In this document: in pieces, positions 13,370 through 48,149 of the stretch
How positions within the stretch are numbered: position 1 is the stretch's first letter
Layout: the number at the start of each line of letters is the position of its first letter
Virus genome (UHGV): UHGV-1522688
From: a virus
DNA length: 49,863 nucleotides
Direction: 5' to 3' (one strand)
Notes under the pieces: generated by a model
The model's input: only the letters and a program-made list of their open reading frames with translations
Databases searched by the model: none
Told to the model about the DNA's origin: nothing
Program-made: the position numbers and the translations under genes

Positions 13370-14983
13370 ATGAATATTGTGCATTATGCAGCCATTGGAG
13401 CTGTAGCTTTCGTAGTTGTTCTAACAATTTTGGTGATAAACATCATTAAATTAAAGTCAGCCAAGGCTGATGCAGCAGAAAAGGCGGCAAAACTTGAGCG
13501 TTACGCGTCAATCACCAATGCTGAAACAGAAGCTGAACGAATCGTGAATGCAGCTAAGCAAACCGCAGAAGAGTTAATTATTGATTCGCAGAATAACCTT
13601 GACGAGGCAAAAGCTGAAGCAGCCAACACTATTGCAGCCAGTGAAAAAGATGCAAGATCTATAACACAGCGTGCGGAGGATATTCTATCAGATGCGCGTT
13701 TAGCAGCTAAGCGAATGAACGCAGAGGCGCTGACCGCTGTAGAAACACAAAGAGTCAAGCGTGCAGAAATTGAAAAACAGATTGATGAATTGCGTAAATC
13801 CTATCGTGAGAAAAAAATCACTTACGATGAGCTGACGGAAGCCCTGTCAATTTATAAAGATGATATGGAATTTGCTGACATGGGGTTCTATGCACCACAC
13901 TTCGATTTTGATACCTCGGCTAGTTTTCAGGATGCGATCAAGGCATGTCGCGAACGGCAAAAAAATCTGCTACGTGACAAAACTGAATTTGGCGCAATAC
14001 ATTGCCCTACTGAATGGACGGTTGGCGGCTCTAAAAGTGAAGGTCGGAAAATGACCACTCGCGGCATTCAGATGACAGCACGTGCATTCAATGGTGAGTG
14101 TGATGCAGCTATTGCAAACTGCACATTTAAAAACGTTTATCAAATGGAGCAAAGAATTTATAAAGCCTTTGATGCCTTGAATAAGATGAATGAGGTTAAC
14201 CAGATTTACATCAATCGTGCTTTTTTAGATTTGAAGCTGGATGAACTTCGACTTACACATGAATATCGTTTGAAAAAACAAGAAGAACGAGAAGAACAAC
14301 GTGAAATCCGCGCTCAGATGGCTGAGGAGAAGCGAGCTCAAGCCGAAATTGATCGTGCACTTCGAGAGGCTGAAGATGAAGAACGCCGCGCCCAAAAAGC
14401 GTTGGATAAAGCCCGAAAAGAAATGGAATCGAAGCTAGCCCAAATGACAGCTGAGCAAGTTGAGAAACACCAAGCGAAGGTATCCGAATTAGAACATGCC
14501 TTAGAAGAGGCATTGTTGAAAGGCCAAAAAGCTCTTTCTATGGCTCAACAAACTAAACGCGGCCACGTGTACGTTATCTCTAATATTGGTTCGTTTGGTG
14601 ATGATGTTTTTAAAATAGGAATGACACGTCGACTTGACCCTCAAGATCGAGTGGATGAACTGGGTAGTGCATCAGTCCCATTCCTGTTCGATGTTCATGC
14701 AATGATTTTCAGTGAAGATGCACCAACAATGGAAAACATGCTCCACCAGCGTTTCAATGAGCAACGCACTAACCTAGTTAATAAGCGTAAAGAGTTTTTC
14801 AATGTAAAATTAAGCGATATCAAAGATGCTGTGTTTGAGATCGCAGGTAAAGATGTAGATTTTATCGAAACAGCAACTGCTCAGCATTATTATGAAACAA
14901 AGGCAATTCGTAAGCAGAAAGCGGATATCATTTCAGTTGTTCCTCAAGAGGAAAAACTACCTAAATTTGCGGACGCAATATAA
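13370..14983 (+). CDS. membrane-anchored coiled-coil protein with DUF4041-like region and C-terminal T5orf172/MUG113 (GIY-YIG-like) domain; candidate defence/exclusion factor
   Basis: 537 aa; N-terminal hydrophobic helix (AIGAVAFVVVLTILVINII); long Ala/Glu/Lys/Arg-rich helical stretches; C-terminal 'GHVYVISNIGSFGDDVFKIGMTRRLDPQDRVDEL...VPF...LHQRFNEQRTNLVNKRKEFF' matches T5orf172 signature as recalled; opposite strand to the tail operon; A+T-rich. Confidence 0.7.
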   Translation: MNIVHYAAIGAVAFVVVLTILVINIIKLKSAKADAAEKAAKLERYASITNAETEAERIVNAAKQTAEELIIDSQNNLDEAKAEAANTIAASEKDARSITQRAEDILSDARLAAKRMNAEALTAVETQRVKRAEIEKQIDELRKSYREKKITYDELTEALSIYKDDMEFADMGFYAPHFDFDTSASFQDAIKACRERQKNLLRDKTEFGAIHCPTEWTVGGSKSEGRKMTTRGIQMTARAFNGECDAAIANCTFKNVYQMEQRIYKAFDALNKMNEVNQIYINRAFLDLKLDELRLTHEYRLKKQEEREEQREIRAQMAEEKRAQAEIDRALREAEDEERRAQKALDKARKEMESKLAQMTAEQVEKHQAKVSELEHALEEALLKGQKALSMAQQTKRGHVYVISNIGSFGDDVFKIGMTRRLDPQDRVDELGSASVPFLFDVHAMIFSEDAPTMENMLHQRFNEQRTNLVNKRKEFFNVKLSDIKDAVFEIAGKDVDFIETATAQHYYETKAIRKQKADIISVVPQEEKLPKFADAI

Positions 14984-34301: not shown

Positions 34302-34991
34302 TCAGTTCGGTTTTGCAAGACTTACATCCAAATTTGTCGCCTTTTGTTGTGAACGTGATCGCGAAACAGAAAGGAGCGCCTGATTATCAAGGTGCACGAA
34401 TTCTTGTTTCATCGCCAGCCAGTGCGGGAGGTAGGTTTCAGTCCAAGTTGGCTTTGATACCCCTACCAGTTGCGCCAGCTGCTGGTACTCGTATGTGCTG
34501 CGCCCTGCTAGTTCTGCTTTCACATCCTGAGCAGCAAGCCAAATTAACGCCTTCAACCGTTCGATGGTTTTACCAGCTATCTTTCGAGACCCCATCTGCG
34601 ACTTGAATTCAGCCCACGCCCACTGAGTAATCAACACCTGACTCTCCCAGCTTACGTTCTCGCTGTAGTTCCACAGTAGCCAGGCCTTCTGGGGTTCTTC
34701 AAGTGACATCAGCGCCCGGCGCCACGATGCGGTGTAGAATTCTACCGGCTGCACCAGGGGAATATGTGAACCCTTGGCATGCGACTGTTTGCCCGGTATT
34801 GGTGGGTTATCCAGCGTAATCATTTTCCCGGTCACTTCATCATACACACGGAGCTTCTTACGTTTAAACGTTCCCGTATCAAACTGGGCGTTCTCAAGCC
34901 ACGCCATCAACTGCCCTTTCGTCGCACCACTTAAATCGGCGGTGGCCACCATCAGCTGCTGGCGCACGTATTCGAGAAATTGAGTGTTCAT
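34302..34991 (-). CDS. Q: late gene antitermination protein Q
   Basis: 229 aa, immediately upstream of lysis cassette region; family assignment by position and size. Confidence 0.7.
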   Translation of the reverse strand: MNTQFLEYVRQQLMVATADLSGATKGQLMAWLENAQFDTGTFKRKKLRVYDEVTGKMITLDNPPIPGKQSHAKGSHIPLVQPVEFYTASWRRALMSLEEPQKAWLLWNYSENVSWESQVLITQWAWAEFKSQMGSRKIAGKTIERLKALIWLAAQDVKAELAGRSTYEYQQLAQLVGVSKPTWTETYLPHWLAMKQEFVHLDNQALLSVSRSRSQQKATNLDVSLAKPN

Positions 34992-35774: not shown

Positions 35775-36407
35775 CTAGGCTTTTTGACGACGCTTACTCA
35801 GCGCATTCGCTCTGCGGGAAAAAATTGACTTCATTCTCTTCAGGTAGTGGATGTCGAACCGGCGCGGCTCGTTGTCGGATTCAAGGCGCTCGACACGTTC
35901 CAGGCCAATGCGTTCAATCAGGCGAATGCGATACTCAACGGTATTTCCGCTTAATTGGCGGTTGCACCGTGTACAGGCTGAATGAACGTTAAAGACGTTG
36001 AATTTGAGATGTGACGCAGCACCGCGCGAACGGTAATGACTGGCATCGATGGCACTACCAGTCAGATAGTTGCTTTTGCCAATGAGCGGATTGCCGCAAC
36101 TGACACGGTCTTTCCCCTCATCACGAATCCTGATGTACCGATTGAAAGCGGACTGAGCCTCTTTATCCCACTGGGATTTAGTCTTCAATGACTCGCGCAC
36201 CCTCTGGCGACGTTGGCGTTCTTTTTTCTCGGCTGCGCGCTTTTTGGCAGACTCCTTGCGTTGTGCCGCCTCCCTGACCTTTCTGGTCTGCTCTTTTCCA
36301 ACCGCGCTAGCGCACTCATAACCGCAGACAGTCTGCGTATCGCGAACAGGATGGAACCACTGGCGGCATTCTTTGTTGGCGCACTTCCGGCGCGGTAACT
36401 TAGCCAT
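35775..36407 (-). CDS. ninG: NinG-like recombination protein
   Basis: Start taken at MAKLPRRKCANKECRQWF; Cys motifs and basic region as in lambda NinG family. Confidence 0.75.
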   Translation of the reverse strand: MAKLPRRKCANKECRQWFHPVRDTQTVCGYECASAVGKEQTRKVREAAQRKESAKKRAAEKKERQRRQRVRESLKTKSQWDKEAQSAFNRYIRIRDEGKDRVSCGNPLIGKSNYLTGSAIDASHYRSRGAASHLKFNVFNVHSACTRCNRQLSGNTVEYRIRLIERIGLERVERLESDNEPRRFDIHYLKRMKSIFSRRANALSKRRQKA

Positions 36408-36409
36408 AA

Positions 36410-36616
36410 TCACCCCCAGACCTTTTGCCGAAAGGTTCTTGGTGTACGCGCCGGATGCTCGCATTCAGGTAATTTTGCGCTAACAGTCCAGGTGATATTG
36501 TCGCGATTCAGGCTGCGTTCTACCGTGGCGCCGCGGCGTCGGTAACAGGCAATAAGTTCGTCGGCCTGCTCGGTTGTGCATTCGTGATGGTGGAACCAGG
36601 AAAATTTCATCGCCAT
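36410..36616 (-). CDS. hypothetical small nin-region protein
   Basis: 68 aa from ATG overlapping upstream stop (TGATG coupling). Confidence 0.45.
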   Translation of the reverse strand: MAMKFSWFHHHECTTEQADELIACYRRRGATVERSLNRDNITWTVSAKLPECEHPARTPRTFRQKVWG

Positions 36617-37218
36617 CACCCCGCAAAACTCATAAGCTGCGCAGCGGCGTTTTCCGCTTCTCGCTGAGTCTTGAATGCCCGGGACAATACCCAGCGCCAC
36701 AGAACATCGAGCGCGGCTTTGTAAAGTTGCTGGAACTCGGTTTCGTCCATGTTGGCGAAAGCTATGCTGCGGGGGTGTTTACGAAGAGTTCCGTCAGGTA
36801 GTTGAATTGCGTCGTAGTGGCCGGCCTCGACAATTACCCAGGCACGGTACGCGTCAAAGGATTTACACAGGCTGATCCCATTGGTAACTCGGCGACTGGC
36901 TACCTGCTCCAGATACTGCTCGGCAGCATCCAGCAGTGCGCCTTCGTTTCCACCAAATGCCGCGAGGAATTTAGCATAACCATTTACGAGCTTACGCTCA
37001 TTGCTGGATATCGCCCCTCCAGTAGGTTCCCAGTATTCAAACCCGAGATTCAGGAGCGCAAAAAAACGGCGATGGAATGCGGGATTCCTCACCTGGCGAA
37101 ATTCGGCTACCAGCACGGCACCGAGTTTGATTTTTGATTGCAGAATATCGCTGGTCTCCGGCGTCGCGGGGATCAGGATTCCTGATGACTGCTTGATGAG
37201 TTGTAGTTCGTGCGCCAT
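36616..37218 (-). CDS. nin-region protein (DUF1367-like?)
   Basis: 200-aa ORF; family guess from memory only. Confidence 0.45.
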   Translation of the reverse strand: MAHELQLIKQSSGILIPATPETSDILQSKIKLGAVLVAEFRQVRNPAFHRRFFALLNLGFEYWEPTGGAISSNERKLVNGYAKFLAAFGGNEGALLDAAEQYLEQVASRRVTNGISLCKSFDAYRAWVIVEAGHYDAIQLPDGTLRKHPRSIAFANMDETEFQQLYKAALDVLWRWVLSRAFKTQREAENAAAQLMSFAG

Positions 37219-37631: not shown

Positions 37632-37865
37632 CTAATAAAACCAGTCGTCAGCGCTTTCCCAGGTATCCTGGAGGATTGATTCAATTTTCTTTTTATCGTC
37701 CTTGTCACCGCCAAAAACACTTAACCCATCCGACCCGGCACGGCGGATTGTGAGCCTGCAATTGTCATAGTGATCATTCAGGCGCTTAAGCAATTCTTTC
37801 TCCAGTGCAGGAACCGCGCCTTTAGGAAGTTCTTTCATACGATCAATGGTTAATTCAACTTTCAT
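37632..37865 (-). CDS. DinI-family protein (second copy)
   Basis: Start at ATG with GGAGG SD: MKVELTIDR...; C-terminal 'KKKIESILQDTWESADDWFY' nearly identical to DinI 'QRISEILQETWESADDWFVSE'. Confidence 0.8.
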   Translation of the reverse strand: MKVELTIDRMKELPKGAVPALEKELLKRLNDHYDNCRLTIRRAGSDGLSVFGGDKDDKKKIESILQDTWESADDWFY

Positions 37866-37883
37866 AATGGCCTCCAATGCATA

Positions 37884-37903
37884 TACTGTGTTTTTATACA
37901 GTA
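37884..37903. promoter_or_regulatory. LexA box upstream of second dinI-like gene
   Basis: TACTGTGTTTTTATACAGTA: perfect CTGT-N8-ACAG, 19 nt upstream of start codon. Confidence 0.65.
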
Positions 37904-38172
37904 TACCTATGAGAGGAAATGATCAACGTTTTAAGAGCACAAATTGTTAATTTCCTGTCAGGAATAAAAAAAGAAAACCCGCCGTAGCGGGTTGAATTCG
38001 TGATGGTTTATAAAGATGTAATTTCTTTCTACTGACAAATCTATGGCTACCCATTTACCCTCAAACGTGAATACAGCATACGCGCCGACATACTGATTAT
38101 CTCTTTGTGGATCGGGATATGATCAACCTTCTGCCAGAACGTAAAACTTGATGCCGCTGACAAATAAACAGC

Positions 38173-38433
38173 TCATTGTTTCTTCTCGTTCTGGGCTGCC
38201 ATATCCAGATAGCGCGGGTCGGATGCTCTCGGTAATGTCAGACTTTGCTCGCGATAGTAGCGCACACGCTCCATGAAGTATTCGCGGAGATGCTCTGGCT
38301 GATCACGGGCTTCCTGTTCAGCGATAACCGGCATGTTCAGGCGCTCTTTGTCCGCTACTCCGGATGCTGCAAAGTCAACGTTAACCTTGTCCTGCTCTTC
38401 TTTCGGCTTGGCTGCAATGTTATGGTTGGACAT
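38173..38433 (-). CDS. hypothetical small acidic protein
   Basis: 86-aa ORF. Confidence 0.4.
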   Translation of the reverse strand: MSNHNIAAKPKEEQDKVNVDFAASGVADKERLNMPVIAEQEARDQPEHLREYFMERVRYYREQSLTLPRASDPRYLDMAAQNEKKQ

Positions 38434-38523
38434 GGTAATCTCACCGGTTAGCTGAGGGAACGATTCTCCTCAACTTGATCATTCAATCTGATTTGTAATC
38501 TTCCGAAATTTGAAATAACATCT

Positions 38524-38928
38524 TTACTTTAATTTATATATTAAACAATCCACAATATCCAAACCATTAACCATACTATTTGAAAGTCGAACTTTGCTAT
38601 TTTCAATAGAGAATGCTCCTTTCATCATTTTATAAATAAAAGCAGACTCTCCTTTAGCTTCGATTGCTTCAAGTGGTATGGAATGGTATTTATTTGATCT
38701 ATTATCTCTATTGATTTGACTTATAAGGCTATAAACGAATGTAGGCCCTTTCTCCTCAAGATCACTTATTACCAAAATATATTTCCAAGAAAACATTTCC
38801 CCATAAAAAAACCACATGGCAGCGGATAAAGCTACTCCTTTCTTCTCTAACTCTTTCATTAGAAATTGGCCAGAATTTTCCATAGAGGTCGTCATTGAGT
38901 GACCTATTACCAGTGACTTCTTACCCAT
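38524..38928 (-). CDS. hypothetical protein (A+T-rich cassette, downstream gene)
   Basis: 134-aa ORF overlapping the upstream gene by 22 nt. Confidence 0.5.
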   Translation of the reverse strand: MGKKSLVIGHSMTTSMENSGQFLMKELEKKGVALSAAMWFFYGEMFSWKYILVISDLEEKGPTFVYSLISQINRDNRSNKYHSIPLEAIEAKGESAFIYKMMKGAFSIENSKVRLSNSMVNGLDIVDCLIYKLK

Positions 38929-39329
38929 TGCAAAACTCCAGATTGATTATTCTCAGCTGCTTCGATGAGCTGCTCCGCCATAGCCCGACTGATAGTAGTT
39001 TCGTAGCGGAGTTGTTCACTCCAATCCTTCATAACAGTCCAAAATATTTCAAACTGCCCATCCTGGGCAGCTAATTGTCTATGTGATAGTTGTAGGCTCG
39101 CCACCTGCATGAGCTTTGTTAGATCATGAACATGTGAGTCCATGGCTAACTTCTTGTCAGGAAATTGAAATGCCGTCACATTTTTTGCTATACATGCTTT
39201 AAGAGCGCACTCAACTGCGTATCCGCAGAGGTAGTATGCACCATGATATAATCCATTCTGTAACAGACATTTTGCTTCCGTTAACCTTATACCAGTTAAA
39301 ACTTCTAGGTCAGATTTATTCATTTGCAA
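38907..39329 (-). CDS. hypothetical protein, possibly HEPN-like helical domain (A+T-rich cassette, upstream gene)
   Basis: 140 aa; 'GAYYLCGYAVECALKACIA' resembles first helix of HEPN-type domains; canonical Rx4-6H not clearly seen. Confidence 0.45.
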   Translation of the reverse strand: MQMNKSDLEVLTGIRLTEAKCLLQNGLYHGAYYLCGYAVECALKACIAKNVTAFQFPDKKLAMDSHVHDLTKLMQVASLQLSHRQLAAQDGQFEIFWTVMKDWSEQLRYETTISRAMAEQLIEAAENNQSGVLQWVRSHW

Positions 39330-39441
39330 ATATTCTAATTTTCTTTCATAGGCACATGGTACTCATTGAGTGTAATTCTTTCCAACAAATTATCAGATAT
39401 ATACGATAAAAGGTCGCTTGATCAATTTTCGGAGCTAGGAG

Positions 39442-39894
39442 CTAAATGATGTGAAGGCGCGGCTCCCCGTTTTTCGGCTCAGGCCACTGACGCTGCTTAT
39501 TCACCGCCAACTTTTCTACCATCGCCTGGTTAATCTGCTCGTCACTGATACCGGCACGACGTTGCGCATCCCATAACAGGAATTGCATGTCAGCCCATTC
39601 GCTAAGGTCGCCTGGTTCAGCAGCAGCCTCGAGTGCTTCTTTGGAAAGGTGCTTCAGCGGACCAACTGGACCGACATCGCCGAAAGTAGCCAGTGACCAC
39701 GCTGCATGTTCACGGCGTACTTGTTCGCGGGCCATCGACTCCAGAACCCCATTAAACACCTTCACAGCATCAGCCATTGCGTAGCCGAGATTGCCGCCGT
39801 CGCTTTGTGCTGCTGCTTTGCTGAGTATTTCTCTTATCTGGTGCAGGCGATTGAGTGATACAGGACCGTTCGCCGGGTGGTTGTTAGTGGTCAT
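39442..39894 (-). CDS. MazG-like nucleotide pyrophosphohydrolase (DUF550-like)
   Basis: Start taken at MTTNNHPANG; 'EALEAAAEPGDLSEWADMQFLLWDAQRRAG' resembles MazG-type fold. Confidence 0.55.
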   Translation of the reverse strand: MTTNNHPANGPVSLNRLHQIREILSKAAAQSDGGNLGYAMADAVKVFNGVLESMAREQVRREHAAWSLATFGDVGPVGPLKHLSKEALEAAAEPGDLSEWADMQFLLWDAQRRAGISDEQINQAMVEKLAVNKQRQWPEPKNGEPRLHII

Positions 39895-40202
39895 ACTGAT
39901 GCTCTCCCGTAAAATGCCAGAACCCGCTTCATCGCCGGACTTGTACGGCATACTGAAGTAACCATGTTTTTTCTCATGTTCGATTTGATCTGCTTGATAT
40001 TCAGTTCCCCGCCTAGTTGCAGCGAATAGACCGGGTGATGTGGCTCCCCAGCGCGAATAACTACTGCCCTACGTACCAGGTGAAGCAGCAGGTTGTGTGC
40101 TTTCTTGCAGTCGCATCCCAGCAGGTTCTGAACCTGACGCGGGGTTATGGTCTGGTTAACCCGAAGGAAATCGACAATTGCCCACAGTGATTTGCTTGCC
40201 AT
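39891..40202 (-). CDS. hypothetical protein (replication-region)
   Basis: 103-aa ORF, 4-nt overlap with downstream gene. Confidence 0.45.
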   Translation of the reverse strand: MASKSLWAIVDFLRVNQTITPRQVQNLLGCDCKKAHNLLLHLVRRAVVIRAGEPHHPVYSLQLGGELNIKQIKSNMRKNMVTSVCRTSPAMKRVLAFYGRASV

Positions 40203-40220: not shown

Positions 40221-40970
40221 TTATTTAACGATCCGGAGATGGCTAACGTTCTTGCGATAGCTGCCCCAGTCAAAGTTCACCCACATCCCGCCATCCATCT
40301 GGAGGCGATCGATAACCCGCGCACCCAACGCGCCGAGAAGTTCGTCGTGGTTCAGATTCGTCAGAACGCCAACCGGGCGCATTGATGACAGCCGACGGTC
40401 AATAACCTGATTCAGAATGACTTTCTCCCCGTTGCTACCGCGCTGAATACCGACTTCATCCAGCACCAGCAGATCGACTTTGCAGAGGTCATCCAAAAGT
40501 GAAGCCTCGGATTGACCACCGTCGTAGCACTCGCGAACGCGCAGCATCAGATCAGGGATTGTCACCACCAACACAGATTGCCCACCGGACAGGAGATGAT
40601 TCCCGATTGCCGCTGCCAGATGGTTTTTCCCGGTACCAGGACCGCCACTGAATACAAAACTCGCAAAGCCGGCTCCAAAGTTCTGCGCGTAGCTCTTTGC
40701 CATGGTATAGGCCTTGCGCTGTTGCTCCCCGGACACTTCGTAGTTGGCGAACGTGCAGCTGCGGTGCAGGCTTTGAATTCCTGAGCGGCCGAAGATTTTC
40801 TCTGTGCGCGCTTTCTGATTCAGCTTGTCCAACTCTTCGCAATGTTTCAGGCCTTCTTCCCGCTGCCACGCCAGCAGCTCTGCTGCGCTGGTGAACTTCG
40901 GCTGAACGCCTGGCGGAATGAGTTTTTTCAGGCGCTCAAGAGCGCTGCCGGAATTAACAATGTTTTTCAC
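40221..40970 (-). CDS. DnaC-like helicase loader (IstB-like ATPase)
   Basis: 249 aa; Walker A 'SGGPGTGKNHLAAAIG', Walker B 'LLVLDEVG'. Confidence 0.85.
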   Translation of the reverse strand: MKNIVNSGSALERLKKLIPPGVQPKFTSAAELLAWQREEGLKHCEELDKLNQKARTEKIFGRSGIQSLHRSCTFANYEVSGEQQRKAYTMAKSYAQNFGAGFASFVFSGGPGTGKNHLAAAIGNHLLSGGQSVLVVTIPDLMLRVRECYDGGQSEASLLDDLCKVDLLVLDEVGIQRGSNGEKVILNQVIDRRLSSMRPVGVLTNLNHDELLGALGARVIDRLQMDGGMWVNFDWGSYRKNVSHLRIVK

Positions 40971-40972
40971 CG

Positions 40973-41917
40973 TTACCCCCTGAATCCGGTTGGGATGGTT
41001 TTATCTGGCTCGGAAATGCGGTTCACATCCCTCCCCGTTTTGCGGTCGTTGAGAGCGAACTTCGGTTTGAACAGTCCCTGGTATCCGTTGGCGATACTGG
41101 TGTTGATCACATCAACCGGGTCATGCCCTTCGTCCAGGCAAGCCTTGAGCAACTTGAAAGCTTTGGTGACCGTCATTTCGGTCTTGATGGCTTTGCCAGA
41201 CTGTTGGCGGTAGGCAACCCACTCATTCCAGGACACAGAATCAAGCCACTCAGGAACGGGAATCGTCAACGGGTCAAACTTACCCCTCCCCTTTGGGGGA
41301 TTAGAGGGGGTTAGATCTGTATTTATATTTGTATTTGGAAGAATGTCTTTGGTGTTCCCTGTTTTCAGGGATACCTCTCCCTGTTTTTGGGGATGGTTAT
41401 CCCCGTTTTCAGGGATGGTTGAATGGGTAAAATTGCTATCCCTGAATTCGGGGATGGTAATTACCCATGTAACAACTTCAGCAGCAGGAAACACCGCTGG
41501 ACACTTCATGCAATTTGGCTTGGTATACGCCCATTTATCCAGGCTGGTATTAATCCCTATGTATCTGGTTTGCCCAATGCGGCGCAGGATGATGATGTTC
41601 CGATAGGCAAGGCTCAACACGGCCTCAGAGACGTGCTTCACCTTCAGCGTCGTTTTATCTGCAATGAGGCTATTGGCGATGCGGTCAGAACTCTTAGACC
41701 AGCCATAGGTCAGACGAACGATAGCATTCAGCACCCGAAACTCACGCCCGGATAGTTCGACGATACACAGGGCATCCTGAATCTGGTTGGCCAGGCGCAA
41801 ATAGCCTTTCTCCAGATCAGCCATGCTGCTCTCCTGTTTCCCCTGCTGTGTGGGGAATTTGAATATTTCAGCGGTATTTGACATACTGTTCCCCGCAATC
41901 ACTTTCCGTTTTTGCAC
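40973..41917 (-). CDS. O: replication initiator O-like protein
   Basis: N-terminal region 'LRLANQIQDALCIVELSGREFRVLNAIVRLTYGWSKSSDRIANSLIADKTTLKVKHVSEA' parallels lambda O; contains iterons internally. Confidence 0.8.
   Translation of the reverse strand: MQKRKVIAGNSMSNTAEIFKFPTQQGKQESSMADLEKGYLRLANQIQDALCIVELSGREFRVLNAIVRLTYGWSKSSDRIANSLIADKTTLKVKHVSEAVLSLAYRNIIILRRIGQTRYIGINTSLDKWAYTKPNCMKCPAVFPAAEVVTWVITIPEFRDSNFTHSTIPENGDNHPQKQGEVSLKTGNTKDILPNTNINTDLTPSNPPKGRGKFDPLTIPVPEWLDSVSWNEWVAYRQQSGKAIKTEMTVTKAFKLLKACLDEGHDPVDVINTSIANGYQGLFKPKFALNDRKTGRDVNRISEPDKTIPTGFRG
41356..41454. repeat. origin iterons: four ~16-bp internally palindromic repeats (TCCCTGTTTTCAGGGA variants) next to an A/T-rich stretch, inside O gene
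   Basis: Copies at about 41356, 41378, 41400, 41439; adjacent 'atctgtatttatatttgtatttgg'. Confidence 0.7.
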
Positions 41918-41968: not shown

Positions 41969-42508
41969 TCATACAACCCCCAGCATCAACTGCACCATCT
42001 CCATCAGCGGACCGGTTAAGCCAGGGTCAACGCGGTACATCTCCACGATCCCCTCGCTCAGCTCTTTCAGCTTCTGATGACGCGGCGCATCCATTGCGAC
42101 AGCTATCTTCGCTTCGCTGGTTTCCTTCTCCATACGTGCCAGGCGAGCCATGATGTTGTCTTCTGGCAGCAGGCGGTTGCGGTATTCAATCGGCAGAACT
42201 GCGAGGATTGCGGGAGTCAGCTGGCGAACGTTCTCGCGGTACCGCTCGCTGTTGAAATGGTTATCGAGGAAGCGGAAAAGCTTCTGGCGCTTTCGGCAGA
42301 GATCATCAGGGAAAGTGATGTCGTCACCACCCTGCGCCTGGTACTCTTCGATGATCAGAGCAGTAACTACGTCCTGACCATCAGCACCAGCCCAGGAGCG
42401 AACCGCATCACGAATATCTTCGTGGCTCGGCCCCCTGCGTGCTTGAGCGCGATTTATCATTACCCCTTGAGTAATATCGCTATCATTCTGATAAGTAAGT
42501 GTCTGCAT
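41969..42508 (-). CDS. YdaT-like (DUF1019) protein in cII position
   Basis: 179 aa; 'VVTALIIEEYQAQGG...LTPAILAVLPIEYRNRL' resembles Rac YdaT as recalled. Confidence 0.55.
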   Translation of the reverse strand: MQTLTYQNDSDITQGVMINRAQARRGPSHEDIRDAVRSWAGADGQDVVTALIIEEYQAQGGDDITFPDDLCRKRQKLFRFLDNHFNSERYRENVRQLTPAILAVLPIEYRNRLLPEDNIMARLARMEKETSEAKIAVAMDAPRHQKLKELSEGIVEMYRVDPGLTGPLMEMVQLMLGVV

Positions 42509-44163: not shown

Positions 44164-47094
44164 ATGGAATTTCCATATGTAGTTAAAGCCACACAAAAGT
44201 CGGGAAAGCCTGATGCTTTTGTCTGGTTCACTGCAAAAACTGAGGCTCGCGCCAACCTGATGCTGGACGTTGCTCTGGAAGACGCTGGCATCGAAACCGG
44301 CCGTGGTAAGGACTACGCCAAGCCTATCCGCACTGACTTCCCAGTTGTTGATGACCTTCCGGAAGAAGGTGAAGTTGATTTCACCTGGTGTGATCGTTAC
44401 GAACTGCAGGACGACGGGCGCATCTGGCTGCCAAAGGCCGCTGGCGACGTTGTCACCACTATCCCTGCCGATGTAAAAAATACCGATGAAGTAGCGACAT
44501 CTGACGAGAATGTATCGTTAGAAAACCGCACTCCAGCAGTCCGTTTTGCCTTCCATCTGATGAGCGATAAATACCAGACTCACGTCACTAAAGAGCAGCA
44601 GCTGGCTGCCAGCGAAATGTCACTGGACGAAAGCAATACCTATCTCCAGAACTTGCTGCAGGTTAAAAATGATGTTCCTGAAATTGGCGAACTCAGTCTG
44701 AATGCTGAGTGGAAAATGATTCAGGCGATTAAAGACATCTTCGAACAGGGTGAAGAGCATGAACCTGAAGTGATCGCTGCTTTCATGTCTGACTGGGTGA
44801 ACGCAGAAGCAGGTGATCGCAATCAACTGGTTGAAGACTGGCGCAGTGGAAAGTTTCCTCTGCTCAAAACTGAAACCACCAGCGTTGGTGATGAAGTCGG
44901 TCCCGAAGAACAATCTCAGCAGCCAGAGCAGCCGAACCTGATCGTCGTAGCCACCCTGCCATTCCGTCAGCGCGTACTGGCTCAGTTCATCGGTAATGGT
45001 GAATATCTCTATCACGTCGATGCCGCGCAGAAAAAAGAGATTGTCCGCCTTGAGATGGACACTGATGACACGTACATCCAGAACCTGCTGCTGGCTGCTG
45101 AGAATGTGGAGGCATTCAAAAAAGCCATTGAGCACGATATTCATAAAGTCGTGAATGCCGTTAAGAAAGTCTTCCCTGTCGACGGTAAGAAACCGGAGCT
45201 GGCAACAGTTATCCAGTTCCTGACGGTGTGGTTCAAAACTGAATACATCGATCGCGGCCTGCTGGTCAAGGAATGGCAGAAAGGCAATCGTGTAACAACC
45301 ATTAATCGCACACCTTCAGGTGCGAACGCCGGCGGCGGCATTGTCTCTGACCGAAAATTCCCGCAAACCATTCTCGGTCTGGAGCATGAGATTGCTCTGG
45401 CGTTACGTGCCCGTGACCGCGAATTTGATATTTACAACGTCCCTCTGGATATAGAACTACAGGCAAACTCCATCATGAATAAGATGGACGATCCCGAATG
45501 GCTGGCGACTCGAGAGAGATTCGTTTCAATTCCTGGTGGCCTGGACTACTCACGTGCCTGCATCATCGCAACAGTAAAAACCACACCAGAGGGGCTTTAT
45601 GCTGATCCTGTAAAACACCAAGAATATTTGAATAGAGTACTTACGGAAACCGACCACGCCAACCCAGATCCATTGCTCGTTGATATAGCCTGCGGTCGTT
45701 CGTCTATGCCTGTACCTATGAAACAGGAAAAAGTAACGGCCGAAGAGGTAAACAAAATTCTTGCAGCTTCCCGCGGAGAATATGTCGAGGGGATTAGTGA
45801 CCCTACAGACCCGAAATGGATCACAGAAGACCTCGCATTAACCGCCCAACAAATAGATGACCGTTCACCACTTAATAAGGAAACCACCAGCAATGTGCAG
45901 ATGGAAGAAACTGTCAGTGATGAAGAGCAGTCAGGCGAAAGCAGTCTGGAAACTGGTGAAGAGTCACATACCGGCCAGCAAGCCGATGTAAACCAGAATG
46001 CGGATTCTGTCGCCCAAAATAGCGATTTTGTAAACCAAACCGAACCGGTTGCGGCACAAATCAAGCCAGAATCTCATTCTGACGAACCGGCTGTTGTGTA
46101 CCCTGCTTACTTTGAGCCAGGCCGCTATGAAGGATTGTCGAACGAGGTTTATCACGCAGCGAACGGTATCAGCTCAACCCAGGTGAAAGACGCACGTGTC
46201 AGCCTGATGTTCTATCACGGCCGTCACGTGACCAAGACTATCCGTCGCGAAAGCAGCGAGGCGCTGACGTTAGGTAGCCTGGCGCACACCCTGGCCCTGG
46301 AGCCCGAAAAGCTCCACGAAGAGTTTGCGGTATTCCCAGGTATTCCGGCTGAGGCGTTTACCACCACCGACTCCATGAAGGCGTTCATTCGAGAATTTAA
46401 CGCGGATAAGCCAAAGGCCGAGCAACTGAAGCTCACCGGTAAGAAAGAAGAACTTCAGGCGGCGATACGCGCGGTCAGCCCGGAGGCCATTTTCGCTGAT
46501 GAATTTGAGCAGCAATGGCGTGATAGCGTTGATGGGAAAACCATCCTGTCCAGAGAACAACTGACGCTGGCCACGGCAATTCAGCAAGCCCTACTGAATC
46601 ATGAATCAGCCGGGAAACTGCTGCGCCATCCTTCCCGTTCAGTGGAAACCAGTTATTTCGGGATGGACGACGAAACCGGTCTGGAAGTCCGTGTGCGCCC
46701 TGACCTTGAGGTTGAAATCAACGGCGTTCGTATCGGTGTTGACCTGAAGACGATCAGCATGGGACGCGTTAAGCAAGACGGTTTGCGCGCCAAACTGCAC
46801 CGGGAAATCATCGACCGCGACTACCACCTCAGCGCTGGCATGTATTGCTCCGTTGCCGACTTTGATCAGTTCTTCTGGATCTTCGTCAACAAAGACGAGG
46901 GCTACCACTGGGTGGCGGTAATTGAGGCATCGGAAGATTTGCTCGACCTCGGGCTGCTGGAGTATCAGCGCACCATGCGTGCACTCGCAAATGCGTATGA
47001 CACCGATTGCTGGTCTGCACCGATAACCGAAGACTACACCGACGAACTGAACGACTTCGACCTGCGCTGCCTTGAAGCGCTGCGTCTGGCTTAA
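44164..47094 (+). CDS. RecE-like exonuclease (exodeoxyribonuclease VIII family)
   Basis: 976 aa; acidic linker; C-terminal region with '(D/E)xK'-type 'GVDLKTISMGRVK'; followed by annealing-protein gene. Confidence 0.6.
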   Translation: MEFPYVVKATQKSGKPDAFVWFTAKTEARANLMLDVALEDAGIETGRGKDYAKPIRTDFPVVDDLPEEGEVDFTWCDRYELQDDGRIWLPKAAGDVVTTIPADVKNTDEVATSDENVSLENRTPAVRFAFHLMSDKYQTHVTKEQQLAASEMSLDESNTYLQNLLQVKNDVPEIGELSLNAEWKMIQAIKDIFEQGEEHEPEVIAAFMSDWVNAEAGDRNQLVEDWRSGKFPLLKTETTSVGDEVGPEEQSQQPEQPNLIVVATLPFRQRVLAQFIGNGEYLYHVDAAQKKEIVRLEMDTDDTYIQNLLLAAENVEAFKKAIEHDIHKVVNAVKKVFPVDGKKPELATVIQFLTVWFKTEYIDRGLLVKEWQKGNRVTTINRTPSGANAGGGIVSDRKFPQTILGLEHEIALALRARDREFDIYNVPLDIELQANSIMNKMDDPEWLATRERFVSIPGGLDYSRACIIATVKTTPEGLYADPVKHQEYLNRVLTETDHANPDPLLVDIACGRSSMPVPMKQEKVTAEEVNKILAASRGEYVEGISDPTDPKWITEDLALTAQQIDDRSPLNKETTSNVQMEETVSDEEQSGESSLETGEESHTGQQADVNQNADSVAQNSDFVNQTEPVAAQIKPESHSDEPAVVYPAYFEPGRYEGLSNEVYHAANGISSTQVKDARVSLMFYHGRHVTKTIRRESSEALTLGSLAHTLALEPEKLHEEFAVFPGIPAEAFTTTDSMKAFIREFNADKPKAEQLKLTGKKEELQAAIRAVSPEAIFADEFEQQWRDSVDGKTILSREQLTLATAIQQALLNHESAGKLLRHPSRSVETSYFGMDDETGLEVRVRPDLEVEINGVRIGVDLKTISMGRVKQDGLRAKLHREIIDRDYHLSAGMYCSVADFDQFFWIFVNKDEGYHWVAVIEASEDLLDLGLLEYQRTMRALANAYDTDCWSAPITEDYTDELNDFDLRCLEALRLA

Positions 47095-47108
47095 TGGAGG
47101 ATTTGACC

Positions 47109-48149
47109 ATGCAAAATACCAACATCATTACGACCGAGCAGGCACCAAACACCATTTCCGCCAGCAACGCTGTGTTCAACGTGCAGGCACTCGGCCAGCT
47201 TACCTCTTTTGCTGAATTGATGGCGCAGTCTGTCGTCACCGTCCCCAAACACCTTGCGGGGAAACCCGCCGACTGTATGGCTATCGTCATGCAGGCTATG
47301 CAGTGGGGAATGAACCCATATGCAGTTGCCCAGAAAACACACCTGGTCAACGGTGTGCTGGGTTACGAAGCGCAGCTGGTTAACGCAGTGATCTCCAGTT
47401 CCAGCGCCATTATTGGCCGCTTCCATTACGAGTACGGCGGTGACTGGGAGAAGATCGCCGGGAAAAAAGACGGTCGTGATGAATTAGGTCTGTTTATCCG
47501 GGTTGGCGCCGTACTGCGCGGAGAAGAAGAAATTACCTGGGGCGAGCCAATCTACCTGGCAGATATCACCATACGTAACTCGCCACTGTGGAAAACAGCG
47601 CCGAAGCAGCAGATCGCTTATCTGGCAGTGAAGTACTGGGCTCGCCTGTACTGCCCAGAAGTCATCCTCGGCGTCTACAGTCCAGATGAAGTTGAGCCAC
47701 GCACTGAGAAAGAGATTAACCCGGCGCCGCAACGCGTTAGCCTGGCCGATATTTCAGGTGACACCGTCACAACCACGCAAAGCGCACAGGAATCGTCGGT
47801 AAATATCGACTCTCTTGCCGATGATTTCCGCGAACGAATCGATGCCGCTCAGGATGTTGATAGTGCAAAAGCACTGCGCGCTGATATCGAAAGCGCGAAG
47901 GCCACACTCGGATCAGCCCTGTTCACCGAGCTGAAGAATAAGGCAGTGAAACGCTATTACCTGGTTGATTCACGTAACAAGGTTGAGGCCGCGATCAACT
48001 CCCTGCCGTCTCCGGACGAACCGGATGCAGCTGAACGGTTTGGGGAAGTTGAGCGAGTTCTTGCAACTGCGAAACGTCATCTGGGCGACGAGCTGCACGA
48101 TCAGTTCAGCATCACCCTGGCGGATATGAAACCGGAATACGTTGGCTAA
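47109..48149 (+). CDS. RecT/Redbeta-superfamily single-strand annealing protein
   Basis: ATG with GGAGG SD just after recE-like stop; 'SPLWKTAPKQQIAYLAVKYWARLYCPEV' resembles RecT core. Confidence 0.55.
   Translation: MQNTNIITTEQAPNTISASNAVFNVQALGQLTSFAELMAQSVVTVPKHLAGKPADCMAIVMQAMQWGMNPYAVAQKTHLVNGVLGYEAQLVNAVISSSSAIIGRFHYEYGGDWEKIAGKKDGRDELGLFIRVGAVLRGEEEITWGEPIYLADITIRNSPLWKTAPKQQIAYLAVKYWARLYCPEVILGVYSPDEVEPRTEKEINPAPQRVSLADISGDTVTTTQSAQESSVNIDSLADDFRERIDAAQDVDSAKALRADIESAKATLGSALFTELKNKAVKRYYLVDSRNKVEAAINSLPSPDEPDAAERFGEVERVLATAKRHLGDELHDQFSITLADMKPEYVG

Follow-up and report, generated by a model that had tools for sequence, protein, structure and literature searches.

A widespread two-gene module of a HEPN protein and an obligate, weakly MNT-like partner, carried between the replication and nin genes of a lambdoid prophage

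In the UHGV virus genome UHGV-1522688, which we analysed as a single strand of 49,863 nucleotides (the window, numbered from its first letter), an A+T-rich block holds two overlapping minus-strand genes, a HEPN-domain gene (gene A) followed by its partner (gene B). To judge from its composition the block is a horizontally acquired gene pair, and by its linkage and spread the pair is a widespread, obligate two-gene module and not a prophage oddity. As far as the sequences tell, it is also a large sister architecture to HEPN/MNT that is named in no database, with the gene order reversed, the two genes tightly coupled and a partner apparently without catalytic residues. We read the pair as a self-contained, horizontally mobile conflict module of the toxin-antitoxin (TA) or abortive-infection (Abi) kind, in which a HEPN effector would be controlled by a dead-MNT-like partner through binding, not AMPylation, and we give this reading about an even chance of being right. 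The features of the cassette are these:

38907..39323, minus strand: gene A, a 138-aa HEPN-domain protein of the PF05168/'HEPN-T' type, from ATG
38524..38928, minus strand: gene B, a 134-aa obligate partner of an uncharacterised family, with a weakly MNT-like alpha/beta fold
38907..38939, minus strand: translational-coupling junction, from a reading of the sequence and from the overlap in most of 92 loci
39324..39441, minus strand: upstream intergenic region, A+T-rich, GC 0.33
38434..38523, minus strand: downstream intergenic region, in which no intrinsic terminator was found

If translation began at the in-frame TTG at 39329, gene A would be 2 aa longer (38907..39329, 140 aa). Since the homologues of gene A are all 138 aa long with the N-terminus MNKSDLE, and the gene calls on related contigs are likewise 138 aa, we take the ATG at 39323 as the true start. 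An earlier note on this DNA, made from the letters alone, had described two minus-strand ORFs of 140 and 134 aa with a 22-nt overlap; its coordinates agree with ours (the overlap is 38907..38928) apart from this start, which we have amended to the ATG. Each ORF has hundreds to thousands of homologues, so both are real genes and not chance. The note had also described an A+T-rich cassette amid phage genes of normal GC, and the numbers bear it out. GC content is 0.369 in 38434..39441 versus 0.502 in the window, it runs at 0.31-0.43 along the A+T-rich block with 0.50-0.56 on both sides, and GC3 is 0.37 and 0.30 in the two genes versus 0.57 and 0.59 in the flanking genes.

By its layout, the junction of gene A and gene B is a classic case of translational coupling. 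A GGAG Shine-Dalgarno sequence (38939..38936) sits 7 nt ahead of the gene B ATG (38928..38926) and is embedded in gene A codons, those of the invariant Gly129 and the Val that follows it, and the gene A stop TAA is at 38909..38907. Across loci the junction has the consensus GGnGTnnTnnCATGGnTnAAGAAnnnnTGGTAA, in which one frame encodes the HEPN C-terminus, G-[VI]-L-x-W-x-K-x-x-W-stop, and the other frame encodes the beginning of the partner, M-x-K-x-x-[LV]-V. The -22 overlap is common to most of the 92 loci.

A promoter borne by the cassette is plausible. Upstream of gene A there is a possible promoter made up of TTGATC (39425..39420), a 16-nt spacer and TATATA (39403..39398), and a 20-bp imperfect palindrome, TTATCGTATATATCTGATAA (39409..39390), overlies the -10 element. 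TTGATC-N16-TATATA and the palindrome could be the promoter and operator of the cassette. In three other prophage contexts (L002, L093/L096 and L097/L098), a perfect TATAAT is found ~34-41 nt upstream of the HEPN ATG. On the coding strand of the cassette, a strict scan for promoters and terminators came up empty, and Rfam gave no match anywhere in the window. Because no terminator was found after gene B, transcription probably runs on into the theta/HolE-like gene that comes next.

In all of the loci (92/92) the HEPN gene is followed immediately, on the same strand, by the partner, and these include 80/80 from an independent scan that took one representative genome for each GTDB species. That scan found at least 591 loci encoding the HEPN, of which 80 were fetched, and these span more than 10 phyla overall. 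By the phylum names in the genome records, they include Acidobacteriota, Desulfobacterota, Bacteroidota, Planctomycetota, Chloroflexota, Actinomycetota, Verrucomicrobiota, Gemmatimonadota, Nitrospirota, Bacillota and Pseudomonadota. The two genes have diverged together (mirror-tree r = 0.71, a value reached by 0/2000 permutations), with a mean identity of 50% for the HEPN versus 37% for the partner. Conservation of the HEPN above its partner fits the expectation for an effector paired with an antitoxin or a sensor.

Around the pair nothing recurs. The 141 nearest ORFs match 201 different Pfam families, each 3 times at most, so the module has no third component and no constant neighbourhood, and the neighbours are mostly housekeeping genes, not defence islands. 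Two metagenome-assembled genomes carry two whole-pair copies each (L028/L031 and L019/L062), and when the window is compared with a different prophage, L002, DNA similarity begins at the HEPN ATG and stops at the partner stop codon. Small, strictly linked, mobile and independent of context, the pair has the generic architecture of a mobile two-gene module, as a type II-like TA module would. It is rare in sequenced phages, where 1 of 50,697 records carries it, and on plasmids, with 2 of 72,556 records. On one of these, the Acinetobacter johnsonii plasmid pAJ4131 (NZ_CP045104.1, 13.9 kb; L099 5001-5800), the pair has the 22-nt overlap and adjoins the TA module BrnT/BrnA and a DUF6236 gene. At one locus (L035:6307-6562) we noted an additional partial copy of the partner directly after the pair. 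An apparent HEPN-partner fusion (L051) was rejected as a 1-nt frameshift in a metagenome-assembled genome.

One locus has an intact HEPN beside a broken partner. In the Catalinimonas alkaloidigena isolate GCA_029504655.1 (L009:3396-3857), a nonsense codon interrupts the partner near codon 20, and the adjacent HEPN is intact and identical to that of another locus (L010) whose partner is intact. This may be a tolerated natural partner-null, or it may be a sequencing error. An intact HEPN next to a broken partner argues against a simple constitutive toxin.

Gene A belongs to the HEPN superfamily both by profile and by fold. It matches the Pfam HEPN model PF05168 with 27.8 bits, the gathering score being 22, over residues 16-127 of the 140-aa TTG-start ORF. 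Its AlphaFold2 model, built with 38 homologues, has a pLDDT of 95.0 and is an all-alpha up-down helical bundle that matches the MNT-associated HEPN-T structures TT1696, AF0298 and ST0689. The upstream protein had been called HEPN-like from its letters, and the two checks that were run, a Pfam profile search and a match of the predicted structure, both support this. When the protein and its profile were searched against solved structures, there was no sequence-level match to any solved HEPN. The exact gene A sequence is found in public collections (WP_213239112.1 is among the accessions listed), and its family comprises at least 2619 clusters at 90% identity. Within the family, R13, Y30, Y31, G34, Y35, E38, C39, K42, F54, P55, H66, W95, W101, Y107, G129, W133 and W138 are invariant, and E103 and R106 are nearly so.

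In catalytic HEPN RNases the last core helix begins with an Rx4-6H motif, which gene A does not have. In the family alignment R106 is followed by Y107, with no conserved His within 4-6 residues, and the invariant His is H66, away from the Rx4-6H position. In part of HEPN-T (PF05168) the Rx4-6H His is also missing and there is a conserved His elsewhere (PMC3710099, Table 1), and for HEPN proteins without the motif, sacsin among them, a non-catalytic role in binding RNA or nucleotides has been proposed (bioRxiv 10.64898/2025.12.18.694329; PMC3710099).

The missing motif would suit a reading that we consider unlikely but take as the main alternative, which is that the pair forms a non-conflict heteromeric complex binding RNA or nucleotides, made of a non-catalytic HEPN-T (cf. 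sacsin) and its partner, with a regulatory or RNA-metabolism role of benefit to host or phage and no toxicity. The mostly housekeeping neighbourhoods point the same way, as does the Catalinimonas locus with its nonsense codon in the partner and its intact HEPN. What speaks against such a non-toxic complex is the patchy spread of the pair, the lack of a link to any pathway, the foreign composition, the double copies, the moron slots in prophages described below and the BrnT/BrnA neighbour. Patchy spread, foreign composition, extra copies and moron slots are hallmarks of selfish or defence modules. In addition, the conserved charged residues of gene A (R106, H66, E103, E38 and K42) suggest chemistry rather than binding alone. 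To our knowledge, there is no experimental assignment of function to a HEPN-T active site.

Gene B is harder to place. The earlier note had recognised nothing in the downstream protein, and this stands insofar as gene B has no match in the Pfam, NCBIfam or PADLOC models; what that first reading missed is the wide spread of the pair as an obligate module and the weakly MNT-like fold of this protein, which belongs to a large family. Its only library match is phrog_5760, of unknown function. A single-sequence search with gene B found 11 relatives, all of them enterobacterial. A profile built from the genes downstream of distant HEPN homologues recovered 730 proteins, and by exhaustive HMMER search the family has 2363 clusters at 50% identity, 1207 of them at E<=1e-10. 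Nearly all members are 125-140 aa long, and the longer homologues have only extra tails, which are not conserved. Gene B and 53 relatives gave no relevant match in Pfam or PADLOC and none to a nucleotidyltransferase (NTase) Pfam model (0/54), and there was no meaningful match by sequence when the protein and its profile were compared with solved structures.

The AlphaFold2 model of gene B has a pLDDT of 91.8, with a helix at 14-29, a hairpin at 34-42/47-54, helices at 57-75, a strand at 89-92, a helix at 97-103 and a hairpin at 113-133. About one third of its top 60 structural matches have the pol-beta nucleotidyltransferase fold, and these include OAS1, GLD-2, CCA-adding enzyme, TUT4, KNTase, LinB and CdnD/E. 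Also among the structural matches is a Shewanella HEPN/MNT chain, 5yep_A, which is labelled "antidote Mnt family". The top Foldseek match, at E 0.04 and TM 0.37, which is not significant, is 7ae2_B of a HEPN/MNT complex, a chain that we infer to be the MntA antitoxin of that complex. An hhalign comparison of the gene B profile with the sole MNT sequence in the fetched loci, a weak single-sequence test, gave a probability of 0.1%. The gene B alignments lack the NTase signatures hG[GS] and [DE]x[DE] on strand 2, and W39 and W48(-K49), both invariant, sit in the hairpin at the position of the NTase motif. Conservation extends to G61, P62, Y66, R114, G122, D127 and Y131, with D127 on a C-terminal strand. 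We infer, with moderate strength, that gene B is possibly an MNT-derived pseudoenzyme, and we assign it to no family.

Among TA families, HEPN/MNT is considered one of the most abundant, and the mode of neutralisation known for it is AMPylation of the toxin by the MNT. The pair resembles type VII HepT/MntA, which is also a mobile two-gene system of a HEPN and a small alpha/beta partner of NTase-like fold, and one could suppose that here too an active NTase partner AMPylates a HEPN tyrosine, for example Y107 beside R106. That MNTs are the top structural matches of the partner would agree with this, as would the gene A fold, which is closest to MNT-associated HEPN-T proteins, the invariance of Tyr107 next to a conserved Arg, and the conserved partner D127 on the C-terminal strand. 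However, HepT is an RNase of the DUF86 type with an RX4HXY motif, whereas gene A has no Rx4H, and MntA is an active AMPylating enzyme encoded upstream, whereas gene B lacks the catalytic Asp and is encoded downstream. An NTase Pfam model matched 0/54 partner members, the catalytic motifs are absent from the alignments, and the HEPN is upstream in 92/92 loci. Given the missing NTase motifs and the HEPN-first order, we reject the canonical type VII mechanism and regard it as highly improbable for this pair.

The MNT-HEPN modules with PF05168 HEPNs, from thermophiles and archaea (TT1696, AF0298 and ST0689 types; Anantharaman et al. 2013, PMC3710099), have the same HEPN subfamily as our pair by Pfam and by fold. 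They, too, are small two-gene modules that lack the Rx4-6H His and have a conserved His elsewhere. The weakly MNT-like fold of gene B is a further likeness. They differ from our pair in that the partner here has lost all NTase motifs and is unmatched by NTase profiles. The gene order also differs, as the MNT gene is canonically upstream of the HEPN gene (PMC3710099), whereas here the HEPN comes first, with a fixed 22-nt overlap.

Gene A and all 38 of its aligned relatives match PDC-M28A, the component A model of the PADLOC candidate PDC-M28, with a best E of 1.4e-10. The match to gene A is weak, at 35.5 bits, and indicates a related HEPN family and not the identical one. Because the partner family matches no PADLOC model, PDC-M28 as PADLOC defines it is absent, and PADLOC-DB v2 holds no registered system of which the pair matches all components. 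PDC-M28 is itself only a candidate, and we found no paper in the literature that describes it. We also found no description of the pair or mention of its accessions in the literature, although it may be identical with one of the four validated HEPN systems that the DefensePredictor papers report.

In the prophage, the cassette had been placed between the nin region and the replication genes, and this is where it lies, with NinG, DUF1367 and Q on one side and the DnaC-like and O-like genes on the other. The interval between them (37632..40202, minus strand) is a stack of accessory genes, listed here with the genes on either side:

34302..34991: Q, nin side of the cassette
35775..36464: NinG, nin side of the cassette
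36616..37218: NinB-like DUF1367 gene, nin side of the cassette
37632..37877, minus strand: DinI-like accessory gene
38173..38433, minus strand: DNA polymerase III theta/HolE-like accessory gene
39442..39951, minus strand: dATP/dGTP pyrophosphohydrolase (PF04447), whose annotated start probably overlaps the Ren-like gene
39891..40202, minus strand: Ren-like accessory gene (phrog_142)
40221..40970: DnaC-like replication gene, replication side of the cassette
40973..41917: O-like replication gene, replication side of the cassette

The A+T-rich gap at 37878..38172 between the DinI-like and theta-like genes (~295 bp, GC ~0.37) matches nothing in Rfam, and every ORF on its minus strand is shorter than 40 aa. 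Beyond the replication genes, and adjoining them, is a gene for a YdaT-domain protein (41969..42508, minus strand), and in the early-left part (44164..48149, plus strand) a 976-aa Exonuclease VIII/PDDEXK protein and a RecT gene make up a RecET-type recombination module. The window also carries PD-Lambda-1, a known single-gene defence moron, at 13370..14983 (plus strand), where it sits on the opposite strand within the tail-gene block; its 537-aa protein (DUF4041 and T5orf172/MUG113) is a full-length PADLOC match at E 5e-201.

A near-identical cassette is found in Citrobacter freundii (L001), with the same flanks and 94% identity, and another in Klebsiella phage Kp4864-1, at 91% DNA identity. 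A megablast-level comparison with 5,426 complete E. coli genomes found the cassette DNA in none of them. Three further lambdoid backgrounds hold versions whose proteins are ~57-62% identical to those of the window: L002, which has DnaB-type replication genes, a Klebsiella background with ParB/DndB genes (L093-96) and one of the E. coli O/P type (L097). The pair thus lies between the replication genes and the nin/Q genes, on the early-right strand, in four different enterobacterial prophage backgrounds. HepS, a solo HEPN abortive-infection protein of Gifsy-1 (PMC13043305), is likewise an accessory HEPN near a lambdoid replication region.

Only its position would suggest that the pair has an ordinary, conserved role in lambdoid replication or among the nin functions. 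With the DNA missing from those E. coli genomes, the pair present in a single phage record, the flanking genes varying between prophages and most homologues being non-phage, we reject such a role; it is close to refuted, and its probability is negligible.

The pair could also be a phage counter-defence device that serves lytic growth of the prophage, either as a sponge for a nucleotide signal or as an inhibitor of a host RNase or of a CBASS- or CRISPR-type effector. Its early-right operon position with no terminator found after it agrees with this idea, and HEPN-T domains can bind nucleotides (bioRxiv 10.64898/2025.12.18.694329). However, nearly all family members are chromosomal, in many phyla and with no visible phage context, and a single record among 50,697 from phages carries the pair, so we think a counter-defence role very unlikely.

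We favour the conflict-module reading because of the HEPN identity of gene A, the obligate linkage of the two genes, the embedded Shine-Dalgarno sequence, the co-divergence, the lack of a third gene, the foreign composition and the double copies. Its location supports the same conclusion, since the pair takes the same replication-nin slot in four backgrounds, a slot of the kind in which HepS is found, has BrnT/BrnA as a neighbour on a plasmid and shares its prophage with PD-Lambda-1. Several observations count against this reading, namely the missing Rx4-6H, the HEPN-first order, the partner-null in Catalinimonas, the rarity on plasmids and phages and the housekeeping neighbours, and the pI values of the two proteins do not show the pattern of a basic toxin with an acidic antitoxin. 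The earlier note had proposed a TA or Abi pair. The mobile two-gene architecture fits that proposal; the lack of Rx4-6H, a match to PDC-M28A that is only weak, the unmatched partner and the Catalinimonas locus do not.

If the pair is a conflict module, we would picture its working as follows. It probably descends from HEPN-MNT modules and would have been picked up as a moron in the lambdoid replication-nin accessory slot. The HEPN and its partner would form a stoichiometric complex in which the faster-evolving partner, as a catalytically dead MNT-like subunit, keeps the HEPN inactive through binding. The HEPN would be the effector, which binds and probably cleaves RNA, or else binds a nucleotide, at a dimer cleft predicted to be lined by R106/Y107, E103, H66 and E38xxxK42. 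Degradation of the partner, or a sensed phage trigger, would release or activate the HEPN, and the growth arrest that follows would exclude a superinfecting phage or stabilise the element.

More tentatively, the pair may represent an unnamed class of HEPN system that serves as a defence moron of enterobacterial prophages. In such a class an MNT-derived pseudoenzyme would have exchanged AMPylation for stoichiometric control or trigger sensing, and the HEPN would use a non-canonical site made up of R106/Y107, E103 and H66. We regard this more specific proposal as possible but doubtful. Were it true, it would mean that HEPN toxins can be neutralised by a new logic and that HEPN catalysis has a new variant.

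Should the pair prove non-toxic, it would be a counter-example to the labelling of every small HEPN pair as a TA system. If instead it is toxic or defensive, HEPN effectors would have a second mode of control and the role of the HEPN-T active site would come to light, and the pair would be a compact addition, of ~0.8 kb, to the prophage-borne defences of Klebsiella, Citrobacter, Salmonella and E. coli.
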